Shown: piece by piece, positions 12,220 through 30,924 of the stretch
How the letters are laid out: each line of letters opens with the position of its first letter
How positions within the stretch are numbered: the first letter of the stretch is position 1
Assembly: GCA_902567855.1 (NCBI GenBank)
Contig: CACFOQ010000002.1
Location: 15,163-79,162, forward strand
From: an uncultured Alphaproteobacteria bacterium
GTDB lineage: Bacteria > Pseudomonadota > Alphaproteobacteria > HIMB59 > GCA-002718135
Direction of reading: 5' to 3'
DNA length: 64,000 bases
Position numbers and translations under genes: made by a program
Notes under the pieces: model-generated
The model's database searches: none
What the model saw: only the letters and a program-made list of their open reading frames with translations
What the model was told of the DNA's origin: nothing

Positions 12220-12309
12220 GGAGAGGTGGCCGAGTGGTTGAAGGCGCCCGCTTGGAAAGCGTGTATAGTGGCAACACTATCGAGGGTTCGAATCCCTCTC
12301 TCTCCGCCA
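12220..12309 (+). tRNA. tRNA-Ser (anticodon GGA), intact, CCA encoded
   Basis: Acceptor GGAGAGG/TCTCTCC. Anticodon loop TTGGAAA (GGA at 12254-12256). Long variable arm tatagtg-gcaa-cactat. T-arm GAGGG-TTCGAAT-CCCTC. G discriminator plus CCA. 90 nt. Confidence 0.95.
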
Positions 12310-12354
12310 TAAATTAAGATTTTTCTTTAACGATTTTTCAAAAAAAAAACGTTT

Positions 12355-12375
12355 GGTTGCACATAGGTTGCACTT
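12355..12375 (+). repeat. Barcode 1L: ggttgcacat-a-ggttgcactt
   Basis: CACAT begins 51 nt after the tRNA CCA end. Confidence 0.85.
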
Positions 12376-12415
12376 GATAGCATACTTTTTATAATCATTT
12401 TGGCAATTTAGTGAT

Positions 12416-12751
12416 ATGATATTATTTGTGAATATAATTATTTCTCTTACTTTCTTTTTATTTTTATTAACCATAAACGTTAATGCTATTGAAAATTTTG
12501 ATTGTCCTAAAAAAAATTTAGGTGAAACGTTTGATCAAGCTTATGAAAGATTAAATCTTAGTGAAGAACAAATAAGGTATTGTAAAAAAGATCGATTGCT
12601 AAATAAAGATACAATAAAAAAAATAGCGGAAGATAAAAAACAATTTGAAGAATTTATGTGGATTAAAGATAGAGCCTTACCTATTTTATGGATATTAATT
12701 GCCATAATAGTAGGTCCAATAATTTTAATTAAAATTTTTAGAAAAAAATAA
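12416..12751 (+). CDS. Small secreted, C-terminally anchored protein with a Cys pair (paralog of 13175..13528)
   Basis: Signal peptide, AIENFDCPK, YCKK, FEEF, C-terminal TM segment plus basic tail. Confidence 0.6.
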   Translation: MILFVNIIISLTFFLFLLTINVNAIENFDCPKKNLGETFDQAYERLNLSEEQIRYCKKDRLLNKDTIKKIAEDKKQFEEFMWIKDRALPILWILIAIIVGPIILIKIFRKK

Positions 12752-12754
12752 TTT

Positions 12755-13165
12755 ATGGTTAATGTGATTGTTAGTATTTTTTTATCCGTATTTTTTTGTA
12801 TAATCGTTGCTATTGTTGACAATAATTTTACAATTCATAGTGACATAAATTTATTAAATAAATTAGAAAATTATATACCTCGAAATAGCACTTCTTATAT
12901 TATTGCTTTTTTAATTTTAGGTGTGATCAACGGATCATTATCCGCATTTATTATTTCTAGATATAAAAGTTTTAATCTTGTTGCTTCAATGATTTTGCCT
13001 ATTTTGATCACAATTGGTTATTTATATATTAGTTTTCTTTTACCAATTCAGCTTTATTTAAGTAATGTTGGTGGAGCAATTGGATCGATTGATTGGGGCT
13101 TAACTCAATTTCTTTTAATTTCTATTACTACTTTGTTTCTTTTTTTAAGAGATCAATCTAATTAA
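12755..13165 (+). CDS. Small integral membrane protein (about 4 TM)
   Basis: 136 aa with four hydrophobic segments. Starts 4 nt after the upstream stop. Confidence 0.55.
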   Translation: MVNVIVSIFLSVFFCIIVAIVDNNFTIHSDINLLNKLENYIPRNSTSYIIAFLILGVINGSLSAFIISRYKSFNLVASMILPILITIGYLYISFLLPIQLYLSNVGGAIGSIDWGLTQFLLISITTLFLFLRDQSN

Positions 13166-13174
13166 AATGAAAAA

Positions 13175-13528
13175 TTAAGTTCGGCGTTTTAAAAAATATC
13201 TTATTAAACGGAAAATAATATAAATTATTAAAAGAATACCCGATAAGAAAATTAAAGCGGGTTTAGATGTATATTTTTCGTACTTTTGTTGTTCTTTAAA
13301 CTCTTCAAATGCTTCCTCACTTTTTTTTGTACAAAAATCTTTTTCTTCTTGAGTTAGATCTTCCCATTTTTTGTTTGGTTGTAAATTTTCTGAATTTTCT
13401 GAAACTAGATTTTCAATTGTACCTTCAAGTTTTGAATCTATTGGTTCTTTAGGACACTCTATAGCTTTCAAATTAAAGGAAATTATCAATACAAAACAAG
13501 TAAGCAAAAATAATGCAAAATATCTCAT
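13175..13528 (-). CDS. Small secreted, C-terminally anchored protein with a Cys pair (paralog of 12416..12751)
   Basis: Signal peptide, AIECPK, FCTKK, FEEF, C-terminal TM segment plus basic tail. Convergent with its paralog. Confidence 0.6.
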   Translation of the reverse strand: MRYFALFLLTCFVLIISFNLKAIECPKEPIDSKLEGTIENLVSENSENLQPNKKWEDLTQEEKDFCTKKSEEAFEEFKEQQKYEKYTSKPALIFLSGILLIIYIIFRLIRYFLKRRT

Positions 13529-13580
13529 TGAATAATCTTATCACCAATATTTAAATTATTCTTTATTAAAATAATTTTTT

Positions 13581-13601
13581 GGTTGCACATTGGTTGCACT
13601 T
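13581..13601 (+). repeat. Barcode 1R: ggttgcacat-t-ggttgcactt
   Basis: CACAT begins 85 nt before the core of tRNA fragment 2. Same 5-mer as 1L. Confidence 0.85.
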
Positions 13602-13670
13602 ACTCACTCATTATTTGCAACTTCACGTTTAATTTTTCCTAGAAAACCTAAACTTTGTATTTAATCAGCA

Positions 13671-13731
13671 CGCTTGGAAAGCGTGTATAGTGGCAACACT
13701 ATCGAGGGTTCGAATCCCTCTCTCTCCGCCA
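13671..13731 (+). repeat. tRNA-Ser 3' fragment 2 (61 nt, anticodon stem to CCA; variable-arm allele A)
   Basis: Identical to 12249-12309. Preceded by the conserved ..tttaatcagca. No 5' acceptor or D arm. Confidence 0.95.
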
Positions 13732-13776
13732 TAAACTAGGATTTTTCTTTAACGATTTTTCAACAAAAATATGTTT

Positions 13777-13797
13777 CGGCGCACATACGGCGCACTT
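13777..13797 (+). repeat. Barcode 2L: cggcgcacat-a-cggcgcactt
   Basis: CACAT begins 51 nt after the fragment 2 CCA. Confidence 0.85.
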
Positions 13798-13914
13798 ACA
13801 CATTCTTTTTCATCTTTGAAAAGTATGTTATTTATATTTTCTTAATTGGTTTTTTTCGGGTGTCATTAATCGGGGATATAGATTAACTTAATCTTTAATT
13901 CAATCAATTACCTA

Positions 13915-13942
13915 TCAACATCCCTCGTGGTTGGTGGTAGGA
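13915..13942 (+). repeat. 28-nt direct repeat, copy 1 (tcaacatccctcgtggttggtggtagga)
   Basis: Second copy at 14138-14165 with 2 mismatches. The pair brackets the small ORF 13964..14122. Confidence 0.8.
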
Positions 13943-13963
13943 TGATTTTGAAAGTAAGAACTT

Positions 13964-14122
13964 ATGGATAATAAAATAATAGATAAATTTTTAAAATTCA
14001 TAGAAAAAGATGTAGTACCTCCTATAAAAAAAGATTTTACATGGCTGGCCAAGACTATAACTAAGGACTTGGAAAAACTTACAAAAGACAAAAAACAATC
14101 TAAAAAAAAGAATAAATCATAG
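13964..14122 (+). CDS. Small Lys-rich protein (52 aa), below the ORF-track cutoff; paralog of 32209..32391
   Basis: Hand translation: MDNKIIDKFLKFIEKDVVPPIKKDFTWLAKTITKDLEKLTKDKKQSKKKNKS. It aligns along its length with the 60-aa ORF at 32209 (PIKKDFTWL, DLEKLTK.KKQSKKK). Confidence 0.6.
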   Translation: MDNKIIDKFLKFIEKDVVPPIKKDFTWLAKTITKDLEKLTKDKKQSKKKNKS

Positions 14123-14137
14123 GAATAAATAATATCC

Positions 14138-14165
14138 TCAACATTTCTCGTGGTTGGTGGTAGGA
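14138..14165 (+). repeat. 28-nt direct repeat, copy 2 (tcaacatttctcgtggttggtggtagga)
   Basis: See 13915-13942. Confidence 0.8.
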
Positions 14166-14192
14166 GTTTTAAAATGAATCCTCTTGGAAGAA

Positions 14193-14939
14193 TCATTTTA
14201 TTTTTTTATTAAAAACCACAGGCATTTTACCTTTCCACTGGAACCACAGATTAGGTTGTTCAATGCACTCACACATAAAATGAGCGACGTTTGCTCGTGT
14301 AGTAGTAAGTCCATTAAAAATAGTTTGAGGAGGTGTCGCTACTACTTCATAGTTCGAAATTTCAGCATTAATGAGTCCGTCTGGTCGGACCACTACCCAT
14401 TCAATAAATTCATTTTCTGAACCAATGTTATCTCTCAAAAAAGCAGCGGAGGCTTCATTATCATAATGTGGTGGTATGAGGTTGCGTAACAGAGATAAAA
14501 TAACTTTTTCGCTCGTGGTTACTCTCTCACCAGGATTGCGATTACCTACGGTGTTCATTAATAAAAATTTTGTTTTATCTAGAGAATGAGTAGCTTTAAT
14601 AGCTACACATAGACGTTTGACTGCTTCCAGAACAAGCGTTCTGGGCTTGCCAAATATTCCTTTAAAACTCATTGTGTGACCTAAGCAGCAAGCCACAGCA
14701 GCACAACCTTTTACGGCTTCCAACATTTGTTCGTCACTCAGATCAAGCAAACTTGCTTTTATGATTTTAAGCTTTGGATTTTCAAGAAGTTCTTGTGGAA
14801 ATTTATCGAGTGACCGAACAATAATTCGAAGGCTATAGCCGCGGACAAGCAGCTGTTTTACAAGAGGGAAACCTGTATTTCCTGTAGCCCCGACCACTAA
14901 AACTGTTTTAGAATTTGAATTGGTTTTTTCGGATGTCAT
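14193..14939 (-). CDS. NAD(P)H-binding atypical SDR (NmrA / flavin-reductase-like)
   Basis: N-terminal VVGATGNTG Rossmann motif. 248 aa. Confidence 0.7.
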   Translation of the reverse strand: MTSEKTNSNSKTVLVVGATGNTGFPLVKQLLVRGYSLRIIVRSLDKFPQELLENPKLKIIKASLLDLSDEQMLEAVKGCAAVACCLGHTMSFKGIFGKPRTLVLEAVKRLCVAIKATHSLDKTKFLLMNTVGNRNPGERVTTSEKVILSLLRNLIPPHYDNEASAAFLRDNIGSENEFIEWVVVRPDGLINAEISNYEVVATPPQTIFNGLTTTRANVAHFMCECIEQPNLWFQWKGKMPVVFNKKIK

Positions 14940-14952
14940 TTATGGTTATCTT

Positions 14953-16275
14953 CTAGTTTTTAATTTTTTTTGCTGCTTTTGCATATTCTATATTTCTTCC
15001 GCCATAACGTCTTAGACGTATGTTGCATTGTTCGGCATGACCAAGAAAACCTTCTAAATATGAAAGTCTAGAGCCATACTCACCTATTAAGGTCGCAGCT
15101 TCATCTGTTAAAACTTTTTGATATGTGTGTGTTTTGATAAATTTACCCACCCATAATCCGCCAGTATAACGTCCGGCTTTTTTAGTAGGTAGGGTATGGT
15201 TTGTTCCAATCACTTTGTCACCATTTGCAACATTGGTTCTTGGGCCAAGAAATAATGCACCGTAAGATTTCATATTTTCCAAAAACCAATCATCTTTTTT
15301 TGTCATCACTTGCACATGTTCCGAGGCAATTTCATTTGCTTTATCAAGCATTTCTTCGTACGAATCACAAAGTATAACTGCACCGTAATCTCTCCAACTT
15401 ATACTTGCTGTTTCTTTAGTTGGTAAAATTTGAAGAATTCTTTCAATCTCTAATAGAGTAGACTCTGCTAAATTTTTTGAATTTGTAATTAGAACTGCGG
15501 GTGAATTATATCCATGTTCAGCTTGCCCTAAAAGATCAGTAGCACATAATTCTCCATCTACAGTATCATCTGCAATAACCATTGTTTCCGTTGGGCCAGC
15601 AAATAAATCAATCCCCACTTTTCCAAATAATTGTCTTTTAGCTTCAGCAACATAAGCGTTACCAGGACCAACAAGCATATCAACTGGTTTTATTGTTTCA
15701 GTTCCTATTGCCATTGCACCTATACCTTGCATACCACCTAATACATATATCTCATGGGCTCCACCTAAATGCATAGCCGCAATTACTGCTGGATTAGGTT
15801 TGCTTTGAAATGGAGATGTAGTAGCTACTATTCTAGGGACATCTGCAACAGATGCTGTTACTACAGACATGTGTGCGGATGCTACCATAGGAAATTTTCC
15901 TGCAGGAACATAACAGCCAACTGATTGTACTGGAATATTTTTGTGACCTAATATCACTCCAGGTAGTGTTTCAACTTCTAATTCCTTTAATGTTGCAAGT
16001 TGTGCTTCTGCAAATTGTCTTATTTGTTTTTGCGCAAATTTGATGTCCTCAATGTCATCTTCAGATACCTTACTAATTAAATTTTGAATCTCGGAATCTA
16101 TTAACCTAAAACTTGTTGGGGAATAATTATCAAATTTCTCTGACAATTCTCTAACATATTGGTCACCTTGTTGTTCTATTTTTTTTAATGTTTCTTCAAC
16201 AATGTTTTTAACTTTATCATTCTCAGCTGATCGTTCTTGTTCAGCAATTCCTTTTTTCAAATATTGAATAGTCAT
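14953..16275 (-). CDS. Histidinol-dehydrogenase-family (HisD-like) NAD-dependent alcohol/aldehyde dehydrogenase
   Basis: 440 aa. GQAEHG... and GPGNAYV motifs of the HisD family. The catabolic context argues against biosynthetic hisD. Confidence 0.7.
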   Translation of the reverse strand: MTIQYLKKGIAEQERSAENDKVKNIVEETLKKIEQQGDQYVRELSEKFDNYSPTSFRLIDSEIQNLISKVSEDDIEDIKFAQKQIRQFAEAQLATLKELEVETLPGVILGHKNIPVQSVGCYVPAGKFPMVASAHMSVVTASVADVPRIVATTSPFQSKPNPAVIAAMHLGGAHEIYVLGGMQGIGAMAIGTETIKPVDMLVGPGNAYVAEAKRQLFGKVGIDLFAGPTETMVIADDTVDGELCATDLLGQAEHGYNSPAVLITNSKNLAESTLLEIERILQILPTKETASISWRDYGAVILCDSYEEMLDKANEIASEHVQVMTKKDDWFLENMKSYGALFLGPRTNVANGDKVIGTNHTLPTKKAGRYTGGLWVGKFIKTHTYQKVLTDEAATLIGEYGSRLSYLEGFLGHAEQCNIRLRRYGGRNIEYAKAAKKIKN

Positions 16276-16278
16276 AAG

Positions 16279-17373
16279 TTATTTTTTATGTATTAAATCA
16301 AATATATCAACGTCTATCTGGTTAAGTATGTGTGCAATATCAATGGGCACCCAGTTTTCTCTTATTAATCCTTCGTGATGTAAATAAAAATCCATAACTC
16401 TCATTGTTACTGATTTGCCTGTGCCTTCATATCCAAGCCATTCTTTTGAACCATGCTTACACTCTATGCTGTGCCAACCTGATGTCATCGAAAAATTGCC
16501 ATCTGCAATTTCAATATAGTGTCCTATTTTCCAATAGTCTCTTTCCTTAAATGTTAGTCGAAATGGTAATTGATGATGATCAACATATCCTTTTAGCCCT
16601 CTTGCAGTACCTATACCGCTAGGACCATACCACATCATTTTAGGATGCCAGAAATCTTTTTGTGCATGATTTAATAATTTCTCTCTTATATATTCATAAT
16701 TAGATCCAGGATCAGTTTCAGGTTTGATGTTTAAACTTCTTTGCATTGTTAAAGCTTGCTCCATAGATTTAATTGATAATTCATTATCCATATTTTCAAA
16801 TGTTGTACCATCACCGGTTATTGGCCCTGGCCACATACCTTCCGCGCCTAGAGATTTATTTACTGGCCAAAATCCAGCCTGACGAATAAAATCTAAAGTA
16901 TCAATTAAAATGTGAGATTGAATAATTTTATTATCTTTGATTTCATGCGCTTCACATATTCTAAGATGAATTGTTTTGGCATGAGCAGGAACATTAAGCC
17001 ATGGATTTACAAAAGTCCCTGTTAAATGAGCTACTGTAGAAACAAAAATTTTATCTTGAAAAGATCCTCCAAGAATTAGATTATCCCTTCTTTCAAGATC
17101 AGGAAATGCATTTATAAGTGGTTTCCATAATTTTTCTGTTATTTCAGAAATTCCTTTTAAGTCATTAAGTGGATGGAATGCTCTTATTACCGCATCATCA
17201 TGATACGCATCACTAATATTTTTATTAATATTTTCTAAATTGGATTCAGCTATATTTTTTAGAAGAATTCTAATTTTTTTTTTATTTGCTAAATTTATCT
17301 TTGGATCTAAATTAATGACTTCAGTACTTCCCTCTTTTTTTATTCCAGTATTAAAATTTTCAATGTTTGTCAT
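16279..17373 (-). CDS. NTF2-like / SnoaL-like (ester-cyclase-like) two-domain protein; paralog of 24982..26055
   Basis: Shares PDLERRD, TGDG, WHP..WYGP.GIGT.RG, HQ.PF and LIRENWV..D blocks with 24982..26055. Confidence 0.5.
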   Translation of the reverse strand: MTNIENFNTGIKKEGSTEVINLDPKINLANKKKIRILLKNIAESNLENINKNISDAYHDDAVIRAFHPLNDLKGISEITEKLWKPLINAFPDLERRDNLILGGSFQDKIFVSTVAHLTGTFVNPWLNVPAHAKTIHLRICEAHEIKDNKIIQSHILIDTLDFIRQAGFWPVNKSLGAEGMWPGPITGDGTTFENMDNELSIKSMEQALTMQRSLNIKPETDPGSNYEYIREKLLNHAQKDFWHPKMMWYGPSGIGTARGLKGYVDHHQLPFRLTFKERDYWKIGHYIEIADGNFSMTSGWHSIECKHGSKEWLGYEGTGKSVTMRVMDFYLHHEGLIRENWVPIDIAHILNQIDVDIFDLIHKK

Positions 17374-17436
17374 AATTATTTAAATTTTAGTTACTCACAA
17401 TTAGGCAAATTTTAAATTGATTTATTCAATATTTTG

Positions 17437-17461
17437 AATATTATTCATTAAAAATGAATAA
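17437..17461 (+). promoter_or_regulatory. Candidate operator in a divergent promoter (aatattattcatta; palindrome ttattcat-taaaa-atgaataa)
   Basis: The 14-mer aatattattcatta recurs exactly at 21611-21624, upstream of the LacI-family gene and binding-protein gene. Confidence 0.3.
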
Positions 17462-17479
17462 AATATAATTTTTCCTAAA

Positions 17480-18448
17480 ATGTCAATAGATATAGAAAAA
17501 CGTCTAGCAAGATTTAATGATCTTATTCCCAGTAAGATCCCTTTTGTAGAAGGTAAGTTAAAAGGTCATCAGGATAGAAAAAATTATTCAATTGTCGGAC
17601 CAGGGGTAAGTGAAGATTCTAAGCAAAATGTAAAAATTGCTGAAGCTCACGGATTTAATATCGGGGCTGTAAGTGCTGCCCCAATGAATGGTTCAGGATT
17701 GCATAGTCATACAACTGCCGAGGTGTTTATTATACATGCTGGTTCATGGCGTTTTTATTGGGGAGTAAATGGCGAAGAGGGCGAAGTAATTCTTAGCAAA
17801 GGAGATGTAGCATCATTTCCTACTAATATGTTTAGAGGATTTCAAAATGTTAGTGATGAAGAAGCCCTTATGTTTGTTGCGCTAGGTGAAGATGATCCAG
17901 GTGTTATTACGTGGACTCCAAGATTATTGAAAGAAGCAAATGAATCAGGAATGTTATTAATGGAAGATCGTTCATTGGTTGATCTTAATAAGCAAAAAGT
18001 GCCTGAGGGTAAGTTAGTAACAAAACCTCTTGAAGATAAGGAACTGGAAAGCTTTGACCATTATACCTCAGATGAAATTGAGAAATTTGTTATTCGTTAT
18101 AATGATAATAAAAATTATGTTGATGATGAACATTATAATTCAAATTCAATAATTAATTATTTAGATTCATTTGAAATACATGGAAAAAAAATTGAACCTA
18201 AAATTCCTCACAAAACAGGCTTTGGATTGACTCTATTAAAAGGTGTTTCAGCCCATATGCATGCGTATTCTATTAATTCATCTGAAGTTTATAATTGTTT
18301 AAATGGCAAGTGGGAAGTCACATGTAATGATGAGAAAGTTATTCTCGAACCACGTGATAGTTTCTCTGCTCCAAAGAATTCTACAAGAAGTGTAAAACAG
18401 ATAAGCAATGATGAGGGTAGTTTATTTATCGTTAGGCAATCAAATTAA
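17480..18448 (+). CDS. Bicupin-domain protein
   Basis: Cupin motif GSGLHSHTTAEVFIIHAG in the N-terminal half and a second cupin-like half (GVSAHMHAY...). Confidence 0.65.
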   Translation: MSIDIEKRLARFNDLIPSKIPFVEGKLKGHQDRKNYSIVGPGVSEDSKQNVKIAEAHGFNIGAVSAAPMNGSGLHSHTTAEVFIIHAGSWRFYWGVNGEEGEVILSKGDVASFPTNMFRGFQNVSDEEALMFVALGEDDPGVITWTPRLLKEANESGMLLMEDRSLVDLNKQKVPEGKLVTKPLEDKELESFDHYTSDEIEKFVIRYNDNKNYVDDEHYNSNSIINYLDSFEIHGKKIEPKIPHKTGFGLTLLKGVSAHMHAYSINSSEVYNCLNGKWEVTCNDEKVILEPRDSFSAPKNSTRSVKQISNDEGSLFIVRQSN

Positions 18449-18460
18449 TTTATTAAAAAT

Positions 18461-19432
18461 ATGAAGGGTTTTGATAAAAAATTTAAAGATCTGCCTGATT
18501 ATATTCTTAAGATTACCTATCAGATTTGGGAGGATAAAGATGTTGAGTCAATTAGGGAGTATTATGCAAAGGGAATTCCGGTAAGATCTCCTGATGGAGT
18601 TATCTACGGACCTGATAAAGTAGTAAAAGCAACTTATGCTACGCTTGACGAATTTCCAGATCGGCAACTTCTTGGAGAGGATGTTATTTTTATAGGTAAT
18701 GAAAATGATGGTTATTTATCTTCGCATCGTATTTTAACAAAAGCGACTCATCTAAATGATGGAGTTTACGGAAAAGCCACAGGAATTAAAATATCTTACA
18801 GAGTTATAGCAGATTGTGCTTGTAAAAATAATCAAGTTTATGATGAATGGTTGGTTAGAGATCAGGGAGCAATAGTCAGACAGTTAAATTTAGATCCAAA
18901 AACCTATGCTAAAACATTAATTGATAAGCAAGGCGGTGTAACAAAATGCTCTATACCTTTTAATCAAAATACACCTCTAGATTTAAAATATACCCAGTTA
19001 AGTTTGCCTAAAAATAACACTGGTTATGAATATGCTGAAATATTAAAAACTATATTTCAAAAGGATTTGGATAGTATTGAAAAATTTTATGACAGATCTA
19101 TTAATCAAGAACAACCTAGTGGTCTTAAAGCGTATGGAGTAGACGAGGTTAAATCTTTTTGGTCATCAATTTTTTCTTCCTTTCCTGAAGCGACATTTAA
19201 AATTGAACATGTCAGTTATCTGGATGAGCCTGCAGCATATAGAAAAGCAGCGATAAGATGGTCTTTAAATGGTATCCACTCTGGTCCTGGGTATTTTGGC
19301 AATCCTAGTCAAACAAAAGTTTATGTAATGGGAATTTCTCATGCAGAATTTGGTCCCAGAGGTATAAAAAATGAGTGGGTTTTATTTGATGAAACTGCAA
19401 TATGGAAACAAATTTTAATGAAAACTGGTTAA
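18461..19432 (+). CDS. NTF2-like / SnoaL-like two-domain protein
   Basis: 323 aa. The YQIWEDKDVESIREYYA start and repeated halves resemble ester-cyclase-like proteins. Confidence 0.45.
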   Translation: MKGFDKKFKDLPDYILKITYQIWEDKDVESIREYYAKGIPVRSPDGVIYGPDKVVKATYATLDEFPDRQLLGEDVIFIGNENDGYLSSHRILTKATHLNDGVYGKATGIKISYRVIADCACKNNQVYDEWLVRDQGAIVRQLNLDPKTYAKTLIDKQGGVTKCSIPFNQNTPLDLKYTQLSLPKNNTGYEYAEILKTIFQKDLDSIEKFYDRSINQEQPSGLKAYGVDEVKSFWSSIFSSFPEATFKIEHVSYLDEPAAYRKAAIRWSLNGIHSGPGYFGNPSQTKVYVMGISHAEFGPRGIKNEWVLFDETAIWKQILMKTG

Positions 19433-24088: not shown

Positions 24089-24094
24089 GAATTT

Positions 24095-24976
24095 GTGAAT
24101 ACAAAAATTGAAAATAAATTAACCCCAGTTCGTATTATTGCTTTTATATTTGTGGCTCTGTGGTTGGTTATTGCTATGTTTCCTTTTATTTGGACATTGT
24201 GGGGATCTTTCAAAGTACAAGCTGATTTTTTTTCAAAAGCTGATTGGTCAAATGCAATATTTGGCTTTCATACTGAAAAACAAACAGGCGGTTTTTTTAC
24301 TATGGATGGATATTATGGCTCTTGGATTGAAGAAGAATTTTGGCGTGCCGTTATTAATACAAGCATAGTAGTATTTTTTACAGTTTTAATTTCTCTTACT
24401 TTTGGAACTTTAGGTGGTTATGCTCTTGCAAGGTCTACTTATCGTTATGCCTTCTGGATTTTAATGGCAGGTCTGATCTTTCGTGCGATGCCTCATATGA
24501 CTTTGATTTCAGGATATCTTCAACCTTTTTTTGCATGGAATGTTTGGGGAATTTTGCCTACAACAATAATTGTGCTTGTTGCAATTAACCAACCTTTTAC
24601 TCTGTGGATGCTACATTCATTTTTTTTAAACATACCAAAAGATTTAGATGAAAGCGCTATGTGCGATGGTTGTAATAGATTTCAAGCATTTAGATATGTG
24701 ATCATTCCTATAATGTGGCCAGGGGTAATCACTACTGGATTATTTAGTTTCCTTCTTGCTTACAATGATTTTACAGTTACATCCATGTTGCTTTCAGATG
24801 AAAATGAAACAATGATTCCAGCAATTGCAAGTTTTCTAGGTACTGTCCAAGAAGAAGGTAAAGTAATGTATGCTGTAGCAGCCGTTGTTTCAGCAACTGC
24901 TCCATTATTCTTTTTTGTACTGTTTTTTCAAAGACAGATTGTTAGTGGATTAACAGCTGGAGCAGTAAAAGGTTAA
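24095..24976 (+). CDS. ABC transporter permease (MalG-like)
   Basis: EAA loop ESAMCDGCNRFQAFRYVIIP. GTG start. Confidence 0.85.
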   Translation: MNTKIENKLTPVRIIAFIFVALWLVIAMFPFIWTLWGSFKVQADFFSKADWSNAIFGFHTEKQTGGFFTMDGYYGSWIEEEFWRAVINTSIVVFFTVLISLTFGTLGGYALARSTYRYAFWILMAGLIFRAMPHMTLISGYLQPFFAWNVWGILPTTIIVLVAINQPFTLWMLHSFFLNIPKDLDESAMCDGCNRFQAFRYVIIPIMWPGVITTGLFSFLLAYNDFTVTSMLLSDENETMIPAIASFLGTVQEEGKVMYAVAAVVSATAPLFFFVLFFQRQIVSGLTAGAVKG

Positions 24977-24981
24977 AAGTA

Positions 24982-26055
24982 ATGAAATCAGAGCAATTAA
25001 AAAAATACTTTGAAGATTATCAAATAGCTACTCAAAATTTTAATAAAAATTCAATAAATAATTCTCTAACTAAATACTTCTCAGAACATTCTGTGTTTCA
25101 ATTCTGTTATCCCTTTGGAACGTTTAATGGATTAGATAATTTTTTATCTAATTGTATCAATCCTCTTTTAGAAAGTATTCCAGATCTTGAAAGAAGAGAT
25201 ATGATTGTTATGGCAGGCACAACACCTGAAGATAAACACTGGGTAGGTACTATGGGTAATTATATGGGAACATTTTTAAAATCATTTTTAGATATTCCAC
25301 CAACTGGTAATTTAGTTCATATGCGTTATCATGAGTTTTTCCAAATTGAAAATAATCAGATTATAGAAATGCAATCAATATGGGATCTACCTGAACTGAT
25401 GATCCAGGCCAATGCATGGCCAATGAGTCCTCAGCTAGGATCTTTTTTATGTACACCATCTCCGATGACCGGAGACGGTTTAAAAATAAAAGGCGATGGA
25501 TCAAAAAATTTTGATCTTGTGATTAATATGCTTCAAGACATGGTTTTACACCCTAGTAATCCAGATCCACAAGTTATGAATTTAGATAAGTATTGGCACC
25601 CCAGATTTAATTGGTATGGACCAGCTGGAATTGGAACTGGAAGAGGTATAGCAGGATTTCGCCATTGGCATCAAATACCCTTCTTACGTGCAATGCCGGA
25701 TAGAAAGGGAGGTTCATCAAATGATAGCTTAAAAAATGAGGGATTGAAGGATATGCTAACTCATTGGATATATGAAGGAGATTATGTCTGTGAAACTGGT
25801 TGGCCAAATATGCGATCTACAATATCACAAGATGGATGGATGGGTATTGCTCCTTCAAACCAGATTATAGAAATGCGGAGTTTAGATTTTTGGAGAGTTG
25901 AAAATAATCTTATAAGGGAGAATTGGGTTTTAGTAGATCTTCTGGATGTTTATCAGCAAATAGGCGTTAATGTTTTTGATAGAATAAAAGAATTTAACAA
26001 AGCAAGAAATGTTGGTGATATTAACATTTCTCAAGGACTTGATTTAATTAAATAA
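24982..26055 (+). CDS. NTF2-like / SnoaL-like two-domain protein; paralog of 16279..17373
   Basis: Block-wise similarity to 16279..17373, as listed for that feature. Confidence 0.5.
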   Translation: MKSEQLKKYFEDYQIATQNFNKNSINNSLTKYFSEHSVFQFCYPFGTFNGLDNFLSNCINPLLESIPDLERRDMIVMAGTTPEDKHWVGTMGNYMGTFLKSFLDIPPTGNLVHMRYHEFFQIENNQIIEMQSIWDLPELMIQANAWPMSPQLGSFLCTPSPMTGDGLKIKGDGSKNFDLVINMLQDMVLHPSNPDPQVMNLDKYWHPRFNWYGPAGIGTGRGIAGFRHWHQIPFLRAMPDRKGGSSNDSLKNEGLKDMLTHWIYEGDYVCETGWPNMRSTISQDGWMGIAPSNQIIEMRSLDFWRVENNLIRENWVLVDLLDVYQQIGVNVFDRIKEFNKARNVGDINISQGLDLIK

Positions 26056-26072
26056 ATATTGATATAGAAGAA

Positions 26073-26840
26073 ATGTATTTACAAAAATTTGAAGTCAAAA
26101 ACAAAACTGCATTAGTAACGGGAGCAGGAAAAGGTTTGGGAAAAGCATGTGCTATTGCTTTGGCTGAGGCAGGAGCCAATCTCATTATATTAAGTCGTAC
26201 CAAAACTGACTTAACAAAAGTTGAAAAACAAATAATAAAATTAAATAGAAAATGTCGATCAATCGTATGTGATGTAACAAATTATGAAGATGTAAAAAAA
26301 ACTTTTTCCTCCATATCTAAGTTAGATATTCTTGTTAATAATGCTGGAACTAATAGACCTGAATATTTTACAAAAATTAAAAAAAAAGATATGGATGATG
26401 TTGTTGATTTGAATATTAAAGCCGCATTTCATATTGCACAATTGGCTTCAAAAATAATGCTAAGATCCAAAAATCGAAAGAAAGTTGGGGCTTCCATAAT
26501 AAATATGTCTTCTCAATTAGGAAAAGTAGGAGCTCCACGCCGAAGTGTTTACAATATGACGAAATTTGGAATTGAAGGATTAACCAAAGGAATGGCTGTG
26601 GATTTAGCTAAACATAATATTCGTGTCAATTCAGTTTGTCCCACATTTGTTAAAACGCCAATGGTTGAAAAGTTTTTTAAAGATAAAGAATTTATGAAAT
26701 CTGTATTAAAAAACATTCCTTTAGGCAGAATAGGTTCAGAAAGCGATATTGCTACAGCTGTAGTGTATCTAGCCTCCAATGCATCATCAATGATTACTGG
26801 CTCATCATTAGTAATAGATGGTGGTTGGACAGCAAAATAA
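26073..26840 (+). CDS. Short-chain dehydrogenase/reductase (classical SDR)
   Basis: TGAGKGLG cofactor motif, NNAG, catalytic YNMTK. Confidence 0.9.
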   Translation: MYLQKFEVKNKTALVTGAGKGLGKACAIALAEAGANLIILSRTKTDLTKVEKQIIKLNRKCRSIVCDVTNYEDVKKTFSSISKLDILVNNAGTNRPEYFTKIKKKDMDDVVDLNIKAAFHIAQLASKIMLRSKNRKKVGASIINMSSQLGKVGAPRRSVYNMTKFGIEGLTKGMAVDLAKHNIRVNSVCPTFVKTPMVEKFFKDKEFMKSVLKNIPLGRIGSESDIATAVVYLASNASSMITGSSLVIDGGWTAK

Positions 26841-26851
26841 TTAAAATTTCT

Positions 26852-26872
26852 CGGCGCACATACGGCGCACTT
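26852..26872 (+). repeat. Barcode 2R: cggcgcacat-a-cggcgcactt
   Basis: Identical to 2L. CACAT begins 85 nt before the fragment 3 core. Starts 12 nt after the SDR stop. Confidence 0.85.
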
Positions 26873-26941
26873 AGACACCCGGTATTTACATTTTCACGTT
26901 TAATTTTTCCTAGAAACCTTACACTTTGTTTTTAATCAGCA

Positions 26942-27002
26942 CGCTTGGAAAGCGTGTGTAGTAGCAATACTACCGAGGGTTCGAATCCCTCTCTCTCCGC
27001 CA
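26942..27002 (+). repeat. tRNA-Ser 3' fragment 3 (61 nt; variable-arm allele B tgtagta-gcaa-tactac)
   Basis: Differs from the intact gene only by two compensatory pairs in the variable arm. Preceded by ..tttaatcagca. Confidence 0.95.
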
Positions 27003-27047
27003 AAAACTTAATTTTTTCTTTAACGATTTTTCTGTAATTTTAAATCT

Positions 27048-27068
27048 GGTCTCACATAGGTCTCATTT
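27048..27068 (+). repeat. Barcode 3L: ggtctcacat-a-ggtctcattt
   Basis: CACAT begins 51 nt after the fragment 3 CCA. Confidence 0.8.
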
Positions 27069-27090
27069 TAAGAATAAATAAAATATTATT

Positions 27091-27285
27091 TTAATACAAG
27101 GAAATACCTCCTCGATGATTAATAGTAATAGTTCCTGATAGATATTCTGCAAATGCTTCTTTTACACCAAATAGTTCGTTTACTATTGGAAAAGAAAATG
27201 CGTTTAAGACTATACCTATTGCAAAAACAGCAAGAATTAGTTTAACCGATTTTTCTAATTTTATTTCATAAGTTACTTTTTTCAT
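27091..27285 (-). CDS. Small single-TM protein (64 aa)
   Basis: ATG preceded by aaggat. One central hydrophobic helix (LILAVFAIGIVLNAFSFPIV). Confidence 0.5.
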   Translation of the reverse strand: MKKVTYEIKLEKSVKLILAVFAIGIVLNAFSFPIVNELFGVKEAFAEYLSGTITINHRGGISLY

Positions 27286-27352
27286 TTTTAATCCTTTGTT
27301 TAAATTATTTAAAGATTACAATATTCTTTGTATTGTTTTTGTAAATTAATTT

Positions 27353-27373
27353 GGTCTTACTTTGGTCTCACTA
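27353..27373 (+). repeat. Barcode 3R: ggtcttactt-t-ggtctcacta
   Basis: Decayed copy of 3L. It sits 84 nt before the fragment 4 core. Confidence 0.7.
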
Positions 27374-27441
27374 CCTAAGTTAAAAACTATAAATTAACCC
27401 TAAATAATCTTTGTTTTTTGTAGAAATTTATAAAATCAGCA

Positions 27442-27502
27442 CGCTTGGAAAGCGTGTATAGTGGCAACACTATCGAGGGTTCGAATCCCTCTCTCTCCGC
27501 CA
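27442..27502 (+). repeat. tRNA-Ser 3' fragment 4 (61 nt; allele A)
   Basis: Identical to 12249-12309. Preceded by ..ataaaatcagca. Confidence 0.95.
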
Positions 27503-27547
27503 TAAATTAAGATTTTCCTTTAACAATTTTTCAGCAAAAATATGTTT

Positions 27548-27568
27548 CGACACACATACGGCGCACTT
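27548..27568 (+). repeat. Barcode 4L: cgacacacat-a-cggcgcactt
   Basis: CACAT begins 51 nt after the fragment 4 CCA. The first unit is decayed. Confidence 0.8.
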
Positions 27569-27617
27569 TGCAACCTATTTTTTATCTACATTTTATATAG
27601 TTGGTGGTAATATTATC

Positions 27618-28061
27618 TTGATGCAAAAGTTTATCAATATAGCCATTTTATTAATGTTGTTTTTTTTTGCAAATAATGTTTTAGGAAAGACTTTAGTGGC
27701 TAAATATTATTGTATAGCAAATGATTTAGTTGGAGTTGAATACTATCCGAATAAAAAATCTTCAGTATTTAATTTAAACAATGAAAATAATCATTTTAAA
27801 CTTAAAATATTTAAAAAAGAAAATGAATATTTTTTTGAGACCGGACTAGCAACCGATTTATGGTTATGGGATTCTATGAAAGGATCATCTGATCCTTATG
27901 GTCCATGGACTACTCTGAATGGATATTTAAAACTTTTTAAAGCAAGTGATAAATTAAGATTTGTTTTATTGCAAGAAACAATAGGAAAAGGTAATAATGA
28001 AGTAGATCGTTTGGCTCATTCGAATGTATATTTGTATGACGGAACATGTCATAGAAATTAA
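27618..28061 (+). CDS. Secreted hypothetical protein (147 aa)
   Basis: Signal peptide (..FFFANNVLGK). Cys near each end. ATG at 27621. Its stop abuts the next start. Confidence 0.55.
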   Translation: MMQKFINIAILLMLFFFANNVLGKTLVAKYYCIANDLVGVEYYPNKKSSVFNLNNENNHFKLKIFKKENEYFFETGLATDLWLWDSMKGSSDPYGPWTTLNGYLKLFKASDKLRFVLLQETIGKGNNEVDRLAHSNVYLYDGTCHRN

Positions 28062-29288
28062 ATGACCAATATAGTTAAATTAAAATACGATTATTTAATG
28101 CATTTAGAATATGTTGGTGAAGTTAAGGATGGCTTGCCCCATGGACAAGGTACATTCAATATATATGGAGAAATATTATTTAAAGAATTAATTAAAAAAC
28201 TAAGAAACAAGGAATCAAAGGAAGGTGAGTACAAACATTTATCTAGCCACACACTTACCTCCGAATATCTTCAGCCACTTATAGAATTTTCTTTAAAAGA
28301 AAGTGAGCCAAAAGATTTTGACCAAGATGTTTTGGAAATGTCTATTAGGGGTAACTTTAAAGAAGGTCTTTGGGACGGACGCTTTTTCAGGATTCATTAT
28401 GATGTTATAAATGGAACAGAAAGTGAAGAAGGTGAAGAAGAAGAAGATTTTGAGATACATGCTGAAGGAATGATTTTTGAAAATAATATTATGGTTGAAG
28501 GAAGATTAGATTATGATGAAGGACATTATTTTGGTGAAGTTTTATATAATGAATTGTTTAGTCACGCTTTTAGAAAACAAATTAAAAATTCTATAGAAGG
28601 CAAAAAAATAGATTCTAAAAAACTCCCTGGAACTCTTTATTATCCTCATAATGAAGGATCATATCATTATCATGATCCGAATAACGAAAAATGGATTAGG
28701 GGCACTTGGGTAAAAGGCGAATTAACTAAAATTGACTACATACATGAATGCAAAGTTTTTCCAAACAATGATATTTATGAAGGAGGTACCAAAATAGATA
28801 ATATCAAAATATCTAAAGATTGGAGAATCAAGATAGATAGTTCTGGGATACCCGATGGTTATGGACAGATGGTTTCGGGAAGAAAGCACGATCAAGATGA
28901 TGATGGTTCTCAAATATATTATGGAATGTGGAAAGATGGCATAATGCATGGAAAAGGAACACTGATTGAAAAGGGAGAGTATACAAATATTGGTGATTTA
29001 CGAAACTACGATACACATCCTTTTGAAGCAAAAAAATATGTTGGCGAGATGAAAAATGGAAAAGCTAACGGTGAGGGAGTGCTGAGTTATATTAGAATAA
29101 AGAAAGACGTGATACCAAAAACTTTTTGGCAAAGTATCAATGACCAAGATTTTCCCCCGGAAGAAACTAAATTTTATGAGGGATCTTTCAAAGATAATTT
29201 ATTTCATGGACAAGGAACAATTTTTTATCATGATGGAACATCAAAGAAAGGTGAGTGGGTTAACGGAAAATTTAAAGAAAATAATTAA
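28062..29288 (+). CDS. MORN-repeat protein (408 aa)
   Basis: Repeated Y.G....G..HG.G motifs (YVGEVKDGLPHGQGTF, YYGMWKDGIMHGKGTL, YVGEMKNGKANGEGVL, YEGSFKDNLFHGQGTI). No signal peptide. Confidence 0.75.
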   Translation: MTNIVKLKYDYLMHLEYVGEVKDGLPHGQGTFNIYGEILFKELIKKLRNKESKEGEYKHLSSHTLTSEYLQPLIEFSLKESEPKDFDQDVLEMSIRGNFKEGLWDGRFFRIHYDVINGTESEEGEEEEDFEIHAEGMIFENNIMVEGRLDYDEGHYFGEVLYNELFSHAFRKQIKNSIEGKKIDSKKLPGTLYYPHNEGSYHYHDPNNEKWIRGTWVKGELTKIDYIHECKVFPNNDIYEGGTKIDNIKISKDWRIKIDSSGIPDGYGQMVSGRKHDQDDDGSQIYYGMWKDGIMHGKGTLIEKGEYTNIGDLRNYDTHPFEAKKYVGEMKNGKANGEGVLSYIRIKKDVIPKTFWQSINDQDFPPEETKFYEGSFKDNLFHGQGTIFYHDGTSKKGEWVNGKFKENN

Positions 29289-29295
29289 AATTTCT

Positions 29296-29316
29296 CGGCG
29301 CACATACGCCCTACTT
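29296..29316 (+). repeat. Barcode 4R: cggcgcacat-a-cgccctactt
   Basis: 85 nt before the fragment 5 core. The second unit is decayed. Starts 8 nt after the MORN gene stop. Confidence 0.8.
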
Positions 29317-29385
29317 ACACACCCGATATTTAAATTTTAACGTTTAATTTTTCCTAGAAACCCTACACTTTGTTTTTAATCAGCA

Positions 29386-29446
29386 CGCTTGGAAAGCGTG
29401 TGTAGTAGCAATACTACCGAGGGTTCGAATCCCTCTCTCTCCGCCA
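29386..29446 (+). repeat. tRNA-Ser 3' fragment 5 (61 nt; allele B)
   Basis: Identical to fragment 3. Preceded by ..tttaatcagca. Confidence 0.95.
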
Positions 29447-29492
29447 TAAATTTACAACTATAAAATACAAAATTAGGTTTTAATAGAGTTTT

Positions 29493-29513
29493 TGGCACAC
29501 ATATGGCACACTT
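29493..29513 (+). repeat. Barcode 5L: tggcacacat-a-tggcacactt
   Basis: CACAT begins 52 nt after the fragment 5 CCA, even though the intervening sequence is unrelated to the other left arms. Confidence 0.85.
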
Positions 29514-29571
29514 GCTAAAAAATAAATTATTATAGTTTTTTTATGGACTGTTTATTAGCTTATATTTTTAT

Positions 29572-30768
29572 ATGAATAAAATTATCTTATTTTTAATTTT
29601 GATAATTCCTTGTATTTCAAATGCTCAAATGAATATTTATGAAAATAATGCAAACTATATTATTTCAGGAGTTTTAGATTATTCTTATTGCACCGATACT
29701 ACTAGTTTTGATGAAGATAAAAGAAAAGATTATGAGTTATATGAAATATTTAACGCAAACTTTAAACAAATAAATCAAAATTATTTTTTAAAAGATAATC
29801 AAGTAACAAATGAAAATGTACTTAAAAAAATTGATGAAATTATAAGTTTAAAAAATAATAATTTGTTTATTTTTTATTTTGCGGGCCACGGTGTTTTAAA
29901 AGATGGAGAGCCTGGAATGTTAATGAGTGATTGCTCTGTAATTAAAAAATCAGAACTTAAAAATATTTTAAAGAAAAAAAACAATAAACAAAAAATTATA
30001 TTATTAGGAGATTTTTGTTATTCAGGACTATTAGCAGAAATTGCTAGAGAACTAAATTCAGAAGGATTAGATATTAACGCAATAACTAGCGCTAGTTCAA
30101 ACGTCTCAACTGGTTCATGGAGTTATACGCAAGCTTTAATCGACTCTTTTTCAGGAAGGCAAATTGTTGATAAAAACAATGATGGTCTAATAACTTTTTT
30201 TGATATGATTAATGAAGTTGAAGAAGTAATGTTAAATAGAGAAAGACAAAAATCTGACTACTTTATAACTGCAGATTTAAAGAATGTAATAATTTCTAAA
30301 TCAAAAATAAAAGATAAATCTAATATAAATTATGGTTCATGGTATTGTTCTAATGAAGGTATAACTAGAGTTATAGATATAAAGAATTCTATCTATGAAG
30401 TAGAATATTATAACTACAATAAATATGAATATAAAAAATTAAGTGAAAAAGATTTATATTCAATCCACGAAACAGATTTTGAAAAAGGCGATTTAATATC
30501 GGTTGTCTGGGAAAATGATAATTATGAAGCAAAAATAAAAAAGATCGATAGAATTTTTTATAAAATCTCTTATGTAGGTTGGGGTGATGAGTGGGATGAG
30601 TGGATTACAAAAAATAGAATCACTGGAAATGAAAAAGTAGAAATCAAATCTGATAACGTTTGGTATCCTGGAGAAATCATTCAATATAAGAATAATAAAT
30701 ATTTTATTAGATATAAAGATTATGATTTTTGTTTTGATGAATGGGTTGATAATTCTAGAATAAGATAA
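29572..30768 (+). CDS. Secreted caspase-like (peptidase C14-type His/Cys dyad) protein with two C-terminal Tudor/Agenet-like domains
   Basis: Signal peptide. FYFAGHG (His) and LLGDFCYSG (Cys) about 46 aa apart. C-terminal repeats GDLISVVWENDNYEAKIKKI..YKISYVGWGDEWDEWI and VEIKSDNVWYPGEIIQYKNNKYFIRYKDYDFCFDEWV. Confidence 0.65.
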   Translation: MNKIILFLILIIPCISNAQMNIYENNANYIISGVLDYSYCTDTTSFDEDKRKDYELYEIFNANFKQINQNYFLKDNQVTNENVLKKIDEIISLKNNNLFIFYFAGHGVLKDGEPGMLMSDCSVIKKSELKNILKKKNNKQKIILLGDFCYSGLLAEIARELNSEGLDINAITSASSNVSTGSWSYTQALIDSFSGRQIVDKNNDGLITFFDMINEVEEVMLNRERQKSDYFITADLKNVIISKSKIKDKSNINYGSWYCSNEGITRVIDIKNSIYEVEYYNYNKYEYKKLSEKDLYSIHETDFEKGDLISVVWENDNYEAKIKKIDRIFYKISYVGWGDEWDEWITKNRITGNEKVEIKSDNVWYPGEIIQYKNNKYFIRYKDYDFCFDEWVDNSRIR

Positions 30769-30774
30769 TTTTCT

Positions 30775-30795
30775 TGGCACACATATGGCACACTA
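30775..30795 (+). repeat. Barcode 5R: tggcacacat-a-tggcacacta
   Basis: 84 nt before the fragment 6 core. Starts 7 nt after the stop codon. Confidence 0.85.
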
Positions 30796-30863
30796 TCCAG
30801 ATCAATAATTAATATTTTATTCTAAATAACCTTTGTAATCCCTTAACTCTCTAAAAATCAGCA

Positions 30864-30924
30864 CGCTTGGAAAGCGTGTAAAGTAGCAATACTTTCGAGG
30901 GTTCGAATCCCTCTCTCTCCGCCA
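30864..30924 (+). repeat. tRNA-Ser 3' fragment 6, terminal (61 nt; allele C taaagta-gcaa-tacttt)
   Basis: Unique allele, again with compensatory pairs. No conserved box or barcode follows it. Candidate displaced original 3' half. Confidence 0.95.

Follow-up and report, generated by a model that had tools for sequence, protein, structure and literature searches.

In the 64-kb stretch of alphaproteobacterial DNA analyzed here (contig CACFOQ010000002.1; hereafter the window, in whose positions coordinates are given unless a comparison locus is named), a genomic island lies behind a single tRNA-Ser(GGA) gene. With a probability that we put at roughly 0.75, this island contains at least five cargo-only cassettes that lack an integrase, were inserted site-specifically at that one gene, and accreted in tandem. 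The gene (12220-12309, plus strand) is the only tRNA gene called by ARAGORN in the window. A repeat finder and an exact-pattern parse recovered six copies of a 61-nt block of the form CGCTTGGAAAGCGTGT-N16-CGAGGGTTCGAATCCCTCTCTCTCCGCCA, which begins with the 5' strand of the anticodon stem and runs through to the discriminator A, which a CCA end would directly follow. The copies start at 12249, 13671, 26942, 27442, 29386, and 30864; one lies in the intact gene and five are partial, and the extent given for the array in a preliminary description of this DNA, 12249-30924, proved exact. Comparison loci or contigs, drawn from related genomes and metagenomes, are denoted by L-numbers.

Partial tRNA copies and their variable-arm alleles

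Variation among the six copies is confined to the 16-nt variable arm, the remaining 55 positions being invariant, and falls into three alleles: A (ATAGTG-GCAA-CACTAT; copies 1, 2, and 4), B (GTAGTA-GCAA-TACTAC; copies 3 and 5), and C (AAAGTA-GCAA-TACTTT; copy 6). The six variable sites make up three whole stem pairs, Watson-Crick in every allele, an arrangement expected with a chance of about 7e-6 if six sites were placed at random, so that the preliminary description of three alleles differing only by paired, helix-preserving changes stands. A further allele, A' (ATAGTA GCAA TACTAT), found outside the window at related loci, is a hub, one base-pair swap away from each of A, B, and C. Across 13 distinct copies from the window and related loci, standard pairs occupy 100% of the cells and unpaired cells number zero; the set includes double (compensatory) changes in three pairs and four G.U intermediates. 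When fused to either kind of 5' half described below, six of the six 3' halves were called by ARAGORN as tRNA-Ser(GGA).

This pattern bears on the idea that a single duplication history was followed by divergence of the fragments in place and that the agreement between alleles and cassette arms, detailed below, arose by chance, an explanation to which we give next to no credence. The window holds just three alleles and five cassettes, for which the agreement by itself reaches p=0.1, but dead fragments should gain unpaired changes, whereas none is found in the 55 other positions and the six variable sites are all paired. Moreover, each allele occurs in intact tRNA genes of other genomes, and the association recurs at other loci.

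A scan of the window against Rfam returned the tRNA and sub-threshold matches to one plastid 3' untranslated region (3'UTR) family, psbI-rps4, which lie antisense to every tRNA copy. These matches are most likely not a separate feature, as the family overlaps a plastid tRNA-Ser gene:

12264-12306, 13686-13728, 26958-26999, 27457-27499, 29402-29443, and 30886-30921, minus strand: sub-threshold Rfam matches, psbI-rps4 3'UTR

Architecture of the cassette ends

The intervals between the copies (1.4, 13.2, 0.44, 1.9, and 1.4 kb) correspond to five cassettes, C1 to C5. All five lie between tRNA copies and have conserved arms, and a recombinase is absent from every one. Their ends are built alike: the left arm holds a tandem pair of 11-bp repeats, preceded in C1 to C4 by the box TTTCTTTAACGATTTTTC, and in the right arm this repeat pair recurs together with either of two boxes and with 8-11 nt (TTTAATCAGCA or AATCAGCA) that touch the anticodon stem. 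The tandem pair, of the GGnnnCACAT type, is matched between both ends of a cassette and differs from cassette to cassette, the code being GGTTGCAC in C1, GGCGCAC in C2 and C4, GGTCTCAC in C3, and GGCACAC in C5. Strict tandem 11-mers were observed three times against 0.03 expected, every one at cassette ends, and a looser repeat scan of 11-34 kb likewise matched at cassette ends only. As a source of the repeats, sigma-54 promoters were considered and rejected by inspection, their spacing being unfit. The right arms fall into two families, exactly as the preliminary description had them: the family-1 box, CGTTTAATTTTTCCTAGAAA, is found in C1, C2, and C4, whose left-hand tRNA copies carry allele A, and the family-2 box, CTAAATAA[TC]CTTTGT, in C3 and C5, whose left-hand copies carry allele B. 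The features of the island are as follows (the types of D-arm and 5' half are described further below; ORF, open reading frame):

12220-12309, plus strand: intact tRNA-Ser(GGA); 5' half of the GCCGAGTGGTTGAAGGCGCC type at 12220-12248, block at 12249-12309, variable arm at 12265-12280 with allele A
12310-13659, plus strand: cassette C1, three small membrane-protein ORFs with no Pfam match
C1 left arm: box TTTCTTTAACGATTTTTC at 12322-12339 and 11-bp tandem repeat GGTTGCACATAGGTTGCAC at 12355-12373
C1 right arm: GGTTGCACATTGGTTGCAC at 13581-13599 and family-1 box at 13626-13645
13660-13731, plus strand: partial copy 2, type-2 D-arm remnant TTTAATCAGCA and block at 13671-13731; variable arm at 13687-13702, allele A
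13732-26930, plus strand: cassette C2, 13.2 kb of metabolic cargo, with genes for NmrA-like, histidinol-dehydrogenase-like, four SnoaL-like, and cupin proteins, a LacI regulator, an ABC sugar-type transporter, and an SDR protein
C2 arms: repeat GGCGCACATACGGCGCAC at both ends, 13778-13795 and 26853-26870; family-1 box at 26897-26916
26931-27002, plus strand: partial copy 3; variable arm at 26958-26973, allele B
27003-27433, plus strand: cassette C3, 0.44 kb, with a sole ORF of 64 amino acids on the minus strand
C3 arms: repeats GGTCTCACATAGGTCTCAT at 27048-27066 and GGTCTTACTTTGGTCTCAC at 27353-27371; family-2 box at 27400-27414
27434-27502, plus strand: partial copy 4, remnant AATCAGCA and block at 27442-27502; variable arm at 27458-27473, allele A
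27503-29374, plus strand: cassette C4, a 147-amino acid secreted protein and a 408-amino acid MORN-repeat protein
C4 arms: decaying repeats GACACACATACGGCGCAC at 27549-27566 and GGCGCACATACGCCCTAC at 29297-29314; family-1 box at 29341-29360
29375-29446, plus strand: partial copy 5; variable arm at 29402-29417, allele B
29447-30855, plus strand: cassette C5, a 398-amino acid caspase-like protein with an Agenet/Tudor domain
C5 arms: repeat GGCACACATATGGCACAC at both ends, 29494-29511 and 30776-30793; family-2 box at 30822-30836
30856-30924, plus strand: partial copy 6, the last recognizable fragment; variable arm at 30880-30895, allele C
30925-31292, plus strand: candidate sixth, decayed cassette, with a left end of a third kind, TTTTGATTAAATT, followed by an ABM-domain gene at 30999-31292
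31293-45200, no strand assigned: remaining island, in which attachment-site remnants are not recognizable

Cargo-less modules of about 130 bp, in which a single repeat pair joins the left arm directly to the right arm, were found at L097 (6676-6809) and on the reverse strand of L061 (about 2245-2369); they are either products of deletion between two repeat pairs or a minimal form of the element. Six Pelagibacteraceae loci (L033, L037, L056, L067, L093, and L104) have the ordinary Pelagibacter tRNA-Ser(GGA) with an integrase-less cassette family of its own, the cargo of which includes, for example, an autotransporter-like protein of 579 amino acids and a trypsin-like protease of 382 amino acids. 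The tRNA fragments of that family begin in the D-loop (GGTTGAAGGCGCA) and continue with ATCCACAYWCAACTAAWAAGAGTC.

Linkage of the allele to the right-hand cassette

In the window alone, allele and right-arm family agree in 5/5 cassettes (p=0.1). When the association was retested at more loci, with five extra cassettes, the match extended to 10/10 among the cassettes for which both ends are known (Fisher p=0.008): five cassettes with A or A' to their left have a family-1 right arm (three in the window and two at L049), five with B to their left have a family-2 right arm (two in the window and one each at L029, L097, and L111), and cross cases number zero. The five cassettes outside the window, which come from four loci, by themselves give p=0.1. 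The direction of the linkage was assessed on 40 non-redundant junctions, ten of which are flanked by cassettes on either side. Copies with the same allele tend to resemble one another in the downstream 45-70 nt (permutation p=0.012 and 0.004), whereas no such tendency was detected for the upstream arm in the same set (p=0.40); for the ten two-sided junctions, the values are p=0.03 downstream versus p=0.59 upstream. The proposal that the variable-arm allele travels with the cassette to its right is thus borne out.

Chimeric tRNA genes and the position of the crossover

Intact tRNA-Ser(GGA) genes in related genomes are of three kinds. Type 1, that of Pelagibacter, has the 5' half GGAGAGGTGGCCGAGTGGTTGAAGGCGCA and the variable arm AAACGGGAAACCGTTT; type 2 has an AT-rich D-arm, GGAGAGATGTGAGAGCGGTTTAATCAGCA, and mostly allele B; and the window type equals type 1 apart from a C at position 28. 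Every cassette-borne fragment is preceded by the 3' part of a type-2 D-arm (TTTAATCAGCA or AATCAGCA), so that it was on a type-2 gene that the attachment sites evolved. The intact gene of the window, unlike these fragments, has the GCCGAGTGGTTGAAGGCGCC 5' half, and its block at 12249-12309 matches the cassette-borne copies exactly. Joining a non-type-2 5' half to a cassette-type 3' half, the resident gene is thus chimeric, as the preliminary description had suggested. That its 5' half is native is less certain, since some integrase elements bring in a 5' half (see below).

Comparison of 5' and 3' halves among loci narrows down the exchange point. The window-type 5' half is combined with allele A in the window and at L207 and with allele C at L199, and the type-2 5' half is combined with B at many loci, with A at L266 and L267, with A' at L257, and with C at L258; all of these combinations were called intact by ARAGORN. 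A' and B were found only on type-2 5' halves, and A and C on both kinds, which places the break between position 28 and the first position of the variable arm, that is, in CGCTTGGAAAGCGTGT. At integrase-bearing junctions (see below), identity ends just after ...GGAAAGC or ...GCGTGT. The exchange thus falls within the anticodon stem-loop, consistent with the earlier placement of the crossover near this stem and loop, at a resolution of 16 nt (CGCTTGGAAAGCGTGT) at which the exact 7-nt overlap is not mappable.

We also considered site-specific integration with a crossover downstream of the variable arm, either in the T-loop or at the 3' end of the tRNA, in which case the variable arm would belong to the left-hand cassette and its association with the right arm would be coincidental. 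T-loop and 3'-end sublocations are common for integrases that target tRNA genes (tDNAs) (bioRxiv 10.1101/2020.11.02.365908), the window by itself gives only p=0.1, and the type-2 host of L282 has two copies of tRNA-Ser(GGA) 2.1 kb apart (11812-11898 and 13993-14082), the left of which (A') is cut short only in the 3' strand of the acceptor, the right one (B) being complete. The latter arrangement points, on the sequence, to another element class with a 3'-end crossover. For the cassettes considered here, such a crossover is nonetheless very improbable: the upstream arm is uncorrelated with the allele, a family-1 arm being followed by A, B, or C-like alleles and a family-2 arm by A, A', B, or C; the intact gene has a 5' half unlike that of the fragments together with a variable arm identical to cassette alleles seen elsewhere with the same left arm; and integrase junctions lose identity ahead of the variable arm.

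Two further observations concern the segment in question. The C28.U42 mismatch that the chimera produces in the anticodon stem of the intact gene was considered as an integration scar and rejected, since over 100 freshwater SAR11-like contigs have this mismatch natively, their own gene possessing the same 5' half with GCGTG. In addition, two contigs encoding the same LepA protein, L286 (14260-14314) and L287 (7263-7317), both stop a few bases after ...GCGTGT and their continuations differ, an assembly break that shows population heterogeneity starting exactly at the proposed crossover boundary.

Integrases at the same tRNA gene in related loci

Pfam detected no recombinase or PF00589 domain in any cassette or in the window from 1 to 47 kb, and a XerD-seeded jackhmmer/phmmer search of all ORFs found none in the window or in the marine cassette loci. 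A prophage was considered as the identity of the region and rejected. At related loci, tyrosine integrases of the PF00589 family begin 100-190 nt after the same tRNA (L196, L247, L178, and L222), and truncated copies of the same integrase are present at L154, L141, and L161. In metagenome contigs, the same tRNA 5' half leads into a left box, a tandem pair of 11-bp repeats, a ribosome-binding site, and then an ORF that resembles XerD weakly and is identified by Pfam as Phage_integrase (E=3e-26 and 3e-19); box and repeats directly precede the integrase start codon. Marine (Tara) sequences are among the 25 members of the L222-type integrase cluster. The repeat differs among integrase variants (GGTCGCAC, GTGATCACAC, GCTTGTCACA, and GACTCTCTCAC), and so do the N-terminal 25 residues; this co-variation, seen in four to five cases only, fits arm-type sites that would be read by an N-terminal arm-binding domain.

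At L099, a marine type-2 locus, a displaced tRNA 5' half ends at ...TTGGAAAGC, next to a left arm that contains the repeat GTGATCACAAATTGATCACAC; a 44-amino acid integrase remnant comes next, and 2 kb beyond it the match to this repeat, ATGATCACAAATTGATCACAT, lies 62 nt upstream of a complete tRNA. Matching of the repeats at both ends is, therefore, also a property of integrase-bearing elements, and the crossover region is here, too, the anticodon stem-loop. In some integrase elements (L099, reverse strand 2203-4490; L196, L247, L222, and L137), the host 5' half is joined to a 3' half that is decayed and non-functional. At the left junctions of these elements, ARAGORN calls no tRNA, and the far end of the L099 element has a complete tRNA with its own 5' half; these elements thus appear to supply a 5' half rather than a 3' half. 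No conjugation genes were seen at any locus, the integrase-bearing relatives having been recovered partly and on short contigs.

Taken together with the cassette ends, these loci suggest how the array could have been assembled. A circular cassette would carry an attP composed of the right arm, 8-11 nt of a type-2 D-arm, the anticodon stem-loop, the variable arm, T-arm, and 3' strand of the acceptor, and the left arm. The 11-bp tandem repeats of both arms may serve as arm-type binding sites for a tyrosine integrase acting in trans, probably a member of the family found at the same tRNA elsewhere, which would exchange strands within the 16-nt anticodon stem-loop segment CGCTTGGAAAGCGTGT, at cleavage positions that we place only by inference. 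With the exchange in this segment, sequence 3' of it in any copy would have come with the right-hand cassette, and the few nucleotides 5' of the exchange point would belong to the left-hand cassette. Every integration would thereby overwrite the back two-thirds of the only tRNA-Ser(GGA) gene of the cell, so that cassette-borne 3' halves would be selected to stay working tRNA halves and, for this reason, would differ only by compensatory pairs.

Empty sites, homologous recombination, and the origin of allele C

Contigs with an identical LepA protein (P0097) provide clean empty sites, which carry allele B (L256, L259, and L262), A' (L257), or C (L258), and occupied sites (L255 and L254), where the intact gene has A' or a G.T hybrid and the terminal fragment has B. 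Given that B, A', and C are present at empty sites of one species, the alleles represent circulating polymorphism rather than lineage markers, and the earlier suggestion that the fragments derive from functional genes of different lineages does not hold.

Several observations weigh against stepwise, site-specific accretion of cassettes. No integrase was found within the 64-kb window, nor was an excised circle or an attP form found, scans of IMG/VR with the tRNA block and the integrase yielding one unrelated high-GC contig and one 26%-identical match; consequently, we can only infer mobilization in trans. The cassette with a SOUL gene at L061 combines a C-like allele with a family-1 right arm, which breaks the two-family rule, and L029 and L097 are flanked by B on both sides, which makes them uninformative on direction. 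The comparative sample is small, with about 40 junctions and ten informative cassettes, and some of the loci are mutually related. Finally, clean empty sites with B, A', or C in one species would not result from precise integrase excision, which would restore the terminal allele; they need homologous recombination across the 29-nt identity of the T-arm and acceptor, import from other strains, or stepwise compensatory mutation. The G.T hybrid allele at L254 adds to this difficulty.

Part of this evidence would suit a purely homologous process, in which the tRNA repeats and arms served as portable homology for RecA-dependent exchange within and between strains, and the array was built and shuffled without any integrase having acted. 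This explanation would account for the lack of an integrase in the window, for the different alleles at the empty sites of one species, for the hybrid allele, and for the cargo-less modules of L097 and L061, which, with their single repeat pair, resemble deletions between direct repeats of 19-23 bp. We nevertheless regard it as unlikely. The cassette ends are precise and have a common attP-like architecture that is also present around integrase genes at the same tRNA, the 5' ends of the fragments are always at the anticodon stem or the D-arm remnant, and the breaks in the chimeras fall inside one 16-nt segment instead of being scattered across the 61 nt of identity.

The preliminary description took allele C of the terminal fragment to be the displaced ancestral 3' half, which is plausible but unproven. 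In its favor, C is present in intact genes (L199 and L258). Conversely, L061, in which the ABM right flank is shared (85% identity), shows a degenerate A-like copy at that point, and its ABM gene bears tRNA fragments on both sides, followed by another cassette; the island of the window continues to about 45 kb; and the sequence after copy 6 has TTTTGATTAAATT, which is common to the left ends of two other cassettes, one of which adjoins a C-like allele. At L207, whose host is of the window type and has a 4.8-kb island, allele A occurs with a decayed left arm directly before the ABM gene. Allele C may instead be the allele of a sixth, decayed ABM cassette.

Relation to known systems

No bacterial group in the ocean is more abundant than SAR11, which is described as almost free of mobile elements and yet has an open pangenome. 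The locus provides a nucleotide-resolution view of a site-specific route for cargo ranging from a single gene to 13 kb. The paired differences in the variable arm act as a built-in label that assigns each copy to a cassette and, hence, yields the crossover position and the order of arrival. An essential single-copy tRNA gene has been rewritten repeatedly by incoming DNA, some of it with an attachment site that evolved on the tRNA of another lineage. The mechanism itself, with a tRNA-restoring attP and exchange in the anticodon loop, is textbook, the value of the locus lying in the SAR11 setting and the integrase-less mini-cassette form; the descriptive points that appear to be new are this form, the matched 11-bp code, the cross-variant attP, and the use of the alleles to orient the linkage.

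The closest known arrangement is that of islands in the anticodon-loop sublocation of the Williams 2002 classification of tDNA integrases (summarized in bioRxiv 10.1101/2020.11.02.365908). Common to both are an identity block from the anticodon stem to the 3' end of the tRNA (here 61 nt in six copies), a symmetric anticodon stem-loop as the likely core site, and restoration of the gene by the copy on the element, which yields a chimeric tRNA and a displaced fragment. The window differs in that its cassettes are without an integrase of their own (one is present at L196, L247, L178, and L222, and a remnant at L099), are very small (0.13-2 kb, with one of 13 kb) and stacked five deep, and have an attP from a tRNA-Ser(GGA) variant other than the resident gene. 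Accretion of cis-mobilizable elements (CIMEs), which keep attL and attR but lack integration and transfer genes, is similar in both of these structural respects, as well as in the tandem build-up at a tRNA 3' end, and CIMEs can be mobilized by the integrase of a related element. However, no conjugative ancestry or conjugation genes were seen here, the host is streamlined, free-living, and marine, and the cassettes have the appearance of purpose-sized cargo units, not of large integrative and conjugative elements in decay.

Tycheposons, the tRNA-anchored islands of Prochlorococcus, for which seven target tRNA genes were reported (Hackl et al., bioRxiv 10.1101/2020.12.28.424599), share with this locus a streamlined host from the oligotrophic ocean, a position beside a tRNA gene, niche-gene cargo, and partial tRNA copies between successive insertions. 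Their tRNA-specific tyrosine recombinases have a counterpart here in the integrases at the same tRNA in related loci. Unlike in tycheposons, the target is Ser(GGA), which is not among the seven reported (10.1101/2020.12.28.424599), and the window cassettes contain no recombinase, replication module, or excisionase, their Pfam content being metabolic, transport, MORN, or caspase-like cargo or no match. In SAR11 itself, a partial repeat of the flanking tRNA in four islands, with almost no integrases, was read as gene-cassette insertion (PMC11796062); the organism group and the coarse observation are the same as here, but that paper is without the arm structure, 11-bp repeats, alleles, crossover, and chimeric tRNAs. 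A 2026 preprint on 135 Pelagibacter genomes discusses tRNA-anchored islands, and tRNA-Ser, tRNA fragments, and partial tRNAs occur nowhere in its text.

Integron arrays resemble the locus in being ordered series of small, mostly single-gene, recombinase-less cassettes at one chromosomal platform. However, intI, attI, and Pc are lacking here, a tRNA gene stands at the head of the array, and the cassette boundaries are direct repeats of a tRNA segment and direct 11-bp tandem repeats in place of the inverted repeats of attC hairpins. An integron was, therefore, rejected as the identity of the array, given the absence of an integrase from the window, the tRNA gene at the head, and the lack of attC-type boundaries. 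More speculatively, and with rather less than even odds in our estimation, the lepA-tRNA-Ser(GGA) region could be an integron-like platform across the SAR11 order, with minimal units (down to about 130 bp of arms alone), a tRNA-derived core, and a cassette-specific 11-bp code matched at both ends; the units would be moved in trans by rare cognate tyrosine integrases, some of which supply the 5' half, and every insertion would rewrite most of the single-copy tRNA gene. If so, the variable arm, and possibly the 5' half, would evolve as a hitch-hiking marker of mobile-element traffic and not by vertical descent.

Host, extent of the island, and neighboring genes

The flanks identify the host as a SAR11-type alphaproteobacterium. 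The tRNA pattern matches many single-cell genomes of Pelagibacteraceae or "uncultured Alphaproteobacteria", and lepA and the sugar cluster are 93-96% identical to those of GCA_902577425.1, the closest relative found. A metagenome scan with the window-type 5' half recovered mostly freshwater SAR11-like contigs, and the phage collection contained only generic tRNA-Ser matches. The synteny of lepA and tRNA-Ser(GGA) is conserved. In related type-2 genomes, ABC genes follow 0.1-2 kb after the tRNA; the same genes are at 45287-50829 in the window, and the whole of 12.3-45.2 kb is, therefore, island, of which the fragment-bearing array is the proximal part. Because lepA abuts the tRNA in type-2 relatives, the approximately 10.8 kb upstream of the window tRNA are variable as well; the LepA anchor accordingly suits type-2 hosts, the closest relatives of the window having more than 10 kb between lepA and the tRNA. 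Exact-protein look-ups of flank genes matched only two short contigs for the ABM protein (97 amino acids) and nothing for a 300-amino acid ORF upstream of the tRNA, the ABC permease, and the sugar-binding protein. A homolog search with the ABC permease gave only representatives of 90% clusters, on short contigs, and homologs of the 300-amino acid ORF were found only in glycosylation-type clusters elsewhere, unrelated to the locus. The stretch from 9200 to 12200, between the sugar cluster and the tRNA, has a low GC content (24-26%).

An nhmmer profile of the attachment-site modules found no further decayed modules in the window. A gene for a SOUL heme-binding protein lies at 32801-33376, outside the recognizable array; on the reverse strand of L061 (1024-1606), the SOUL gene is bounded by a tRNA fragment on the left and by a repeat pair and a family-1 box on the right, which indicates that the 31-45 kb part of the window is older accreted material. 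The first gene of C2 (NmrA-like, minus strand, 14179-14942) is 97% identical to L124 14652-15415, where it adjoins lepA in the closest relative, outside any tRNA array, beside genes for an HNH protein and a 400-amino acid ORF, both of which are missing from the window. Two small lysine-rich ORFs, one at the left end of C2 (13964-14122, 52 amino acids) and the other upstream of a NUDIX gene (32209-32391, 60 amino acids) and, like that gene, outside the cassette array, share the motif KKDFTWL..I..DLEKLTK.KKQSKKK and 76% identity over 151 nt, with no Pfam match for either.

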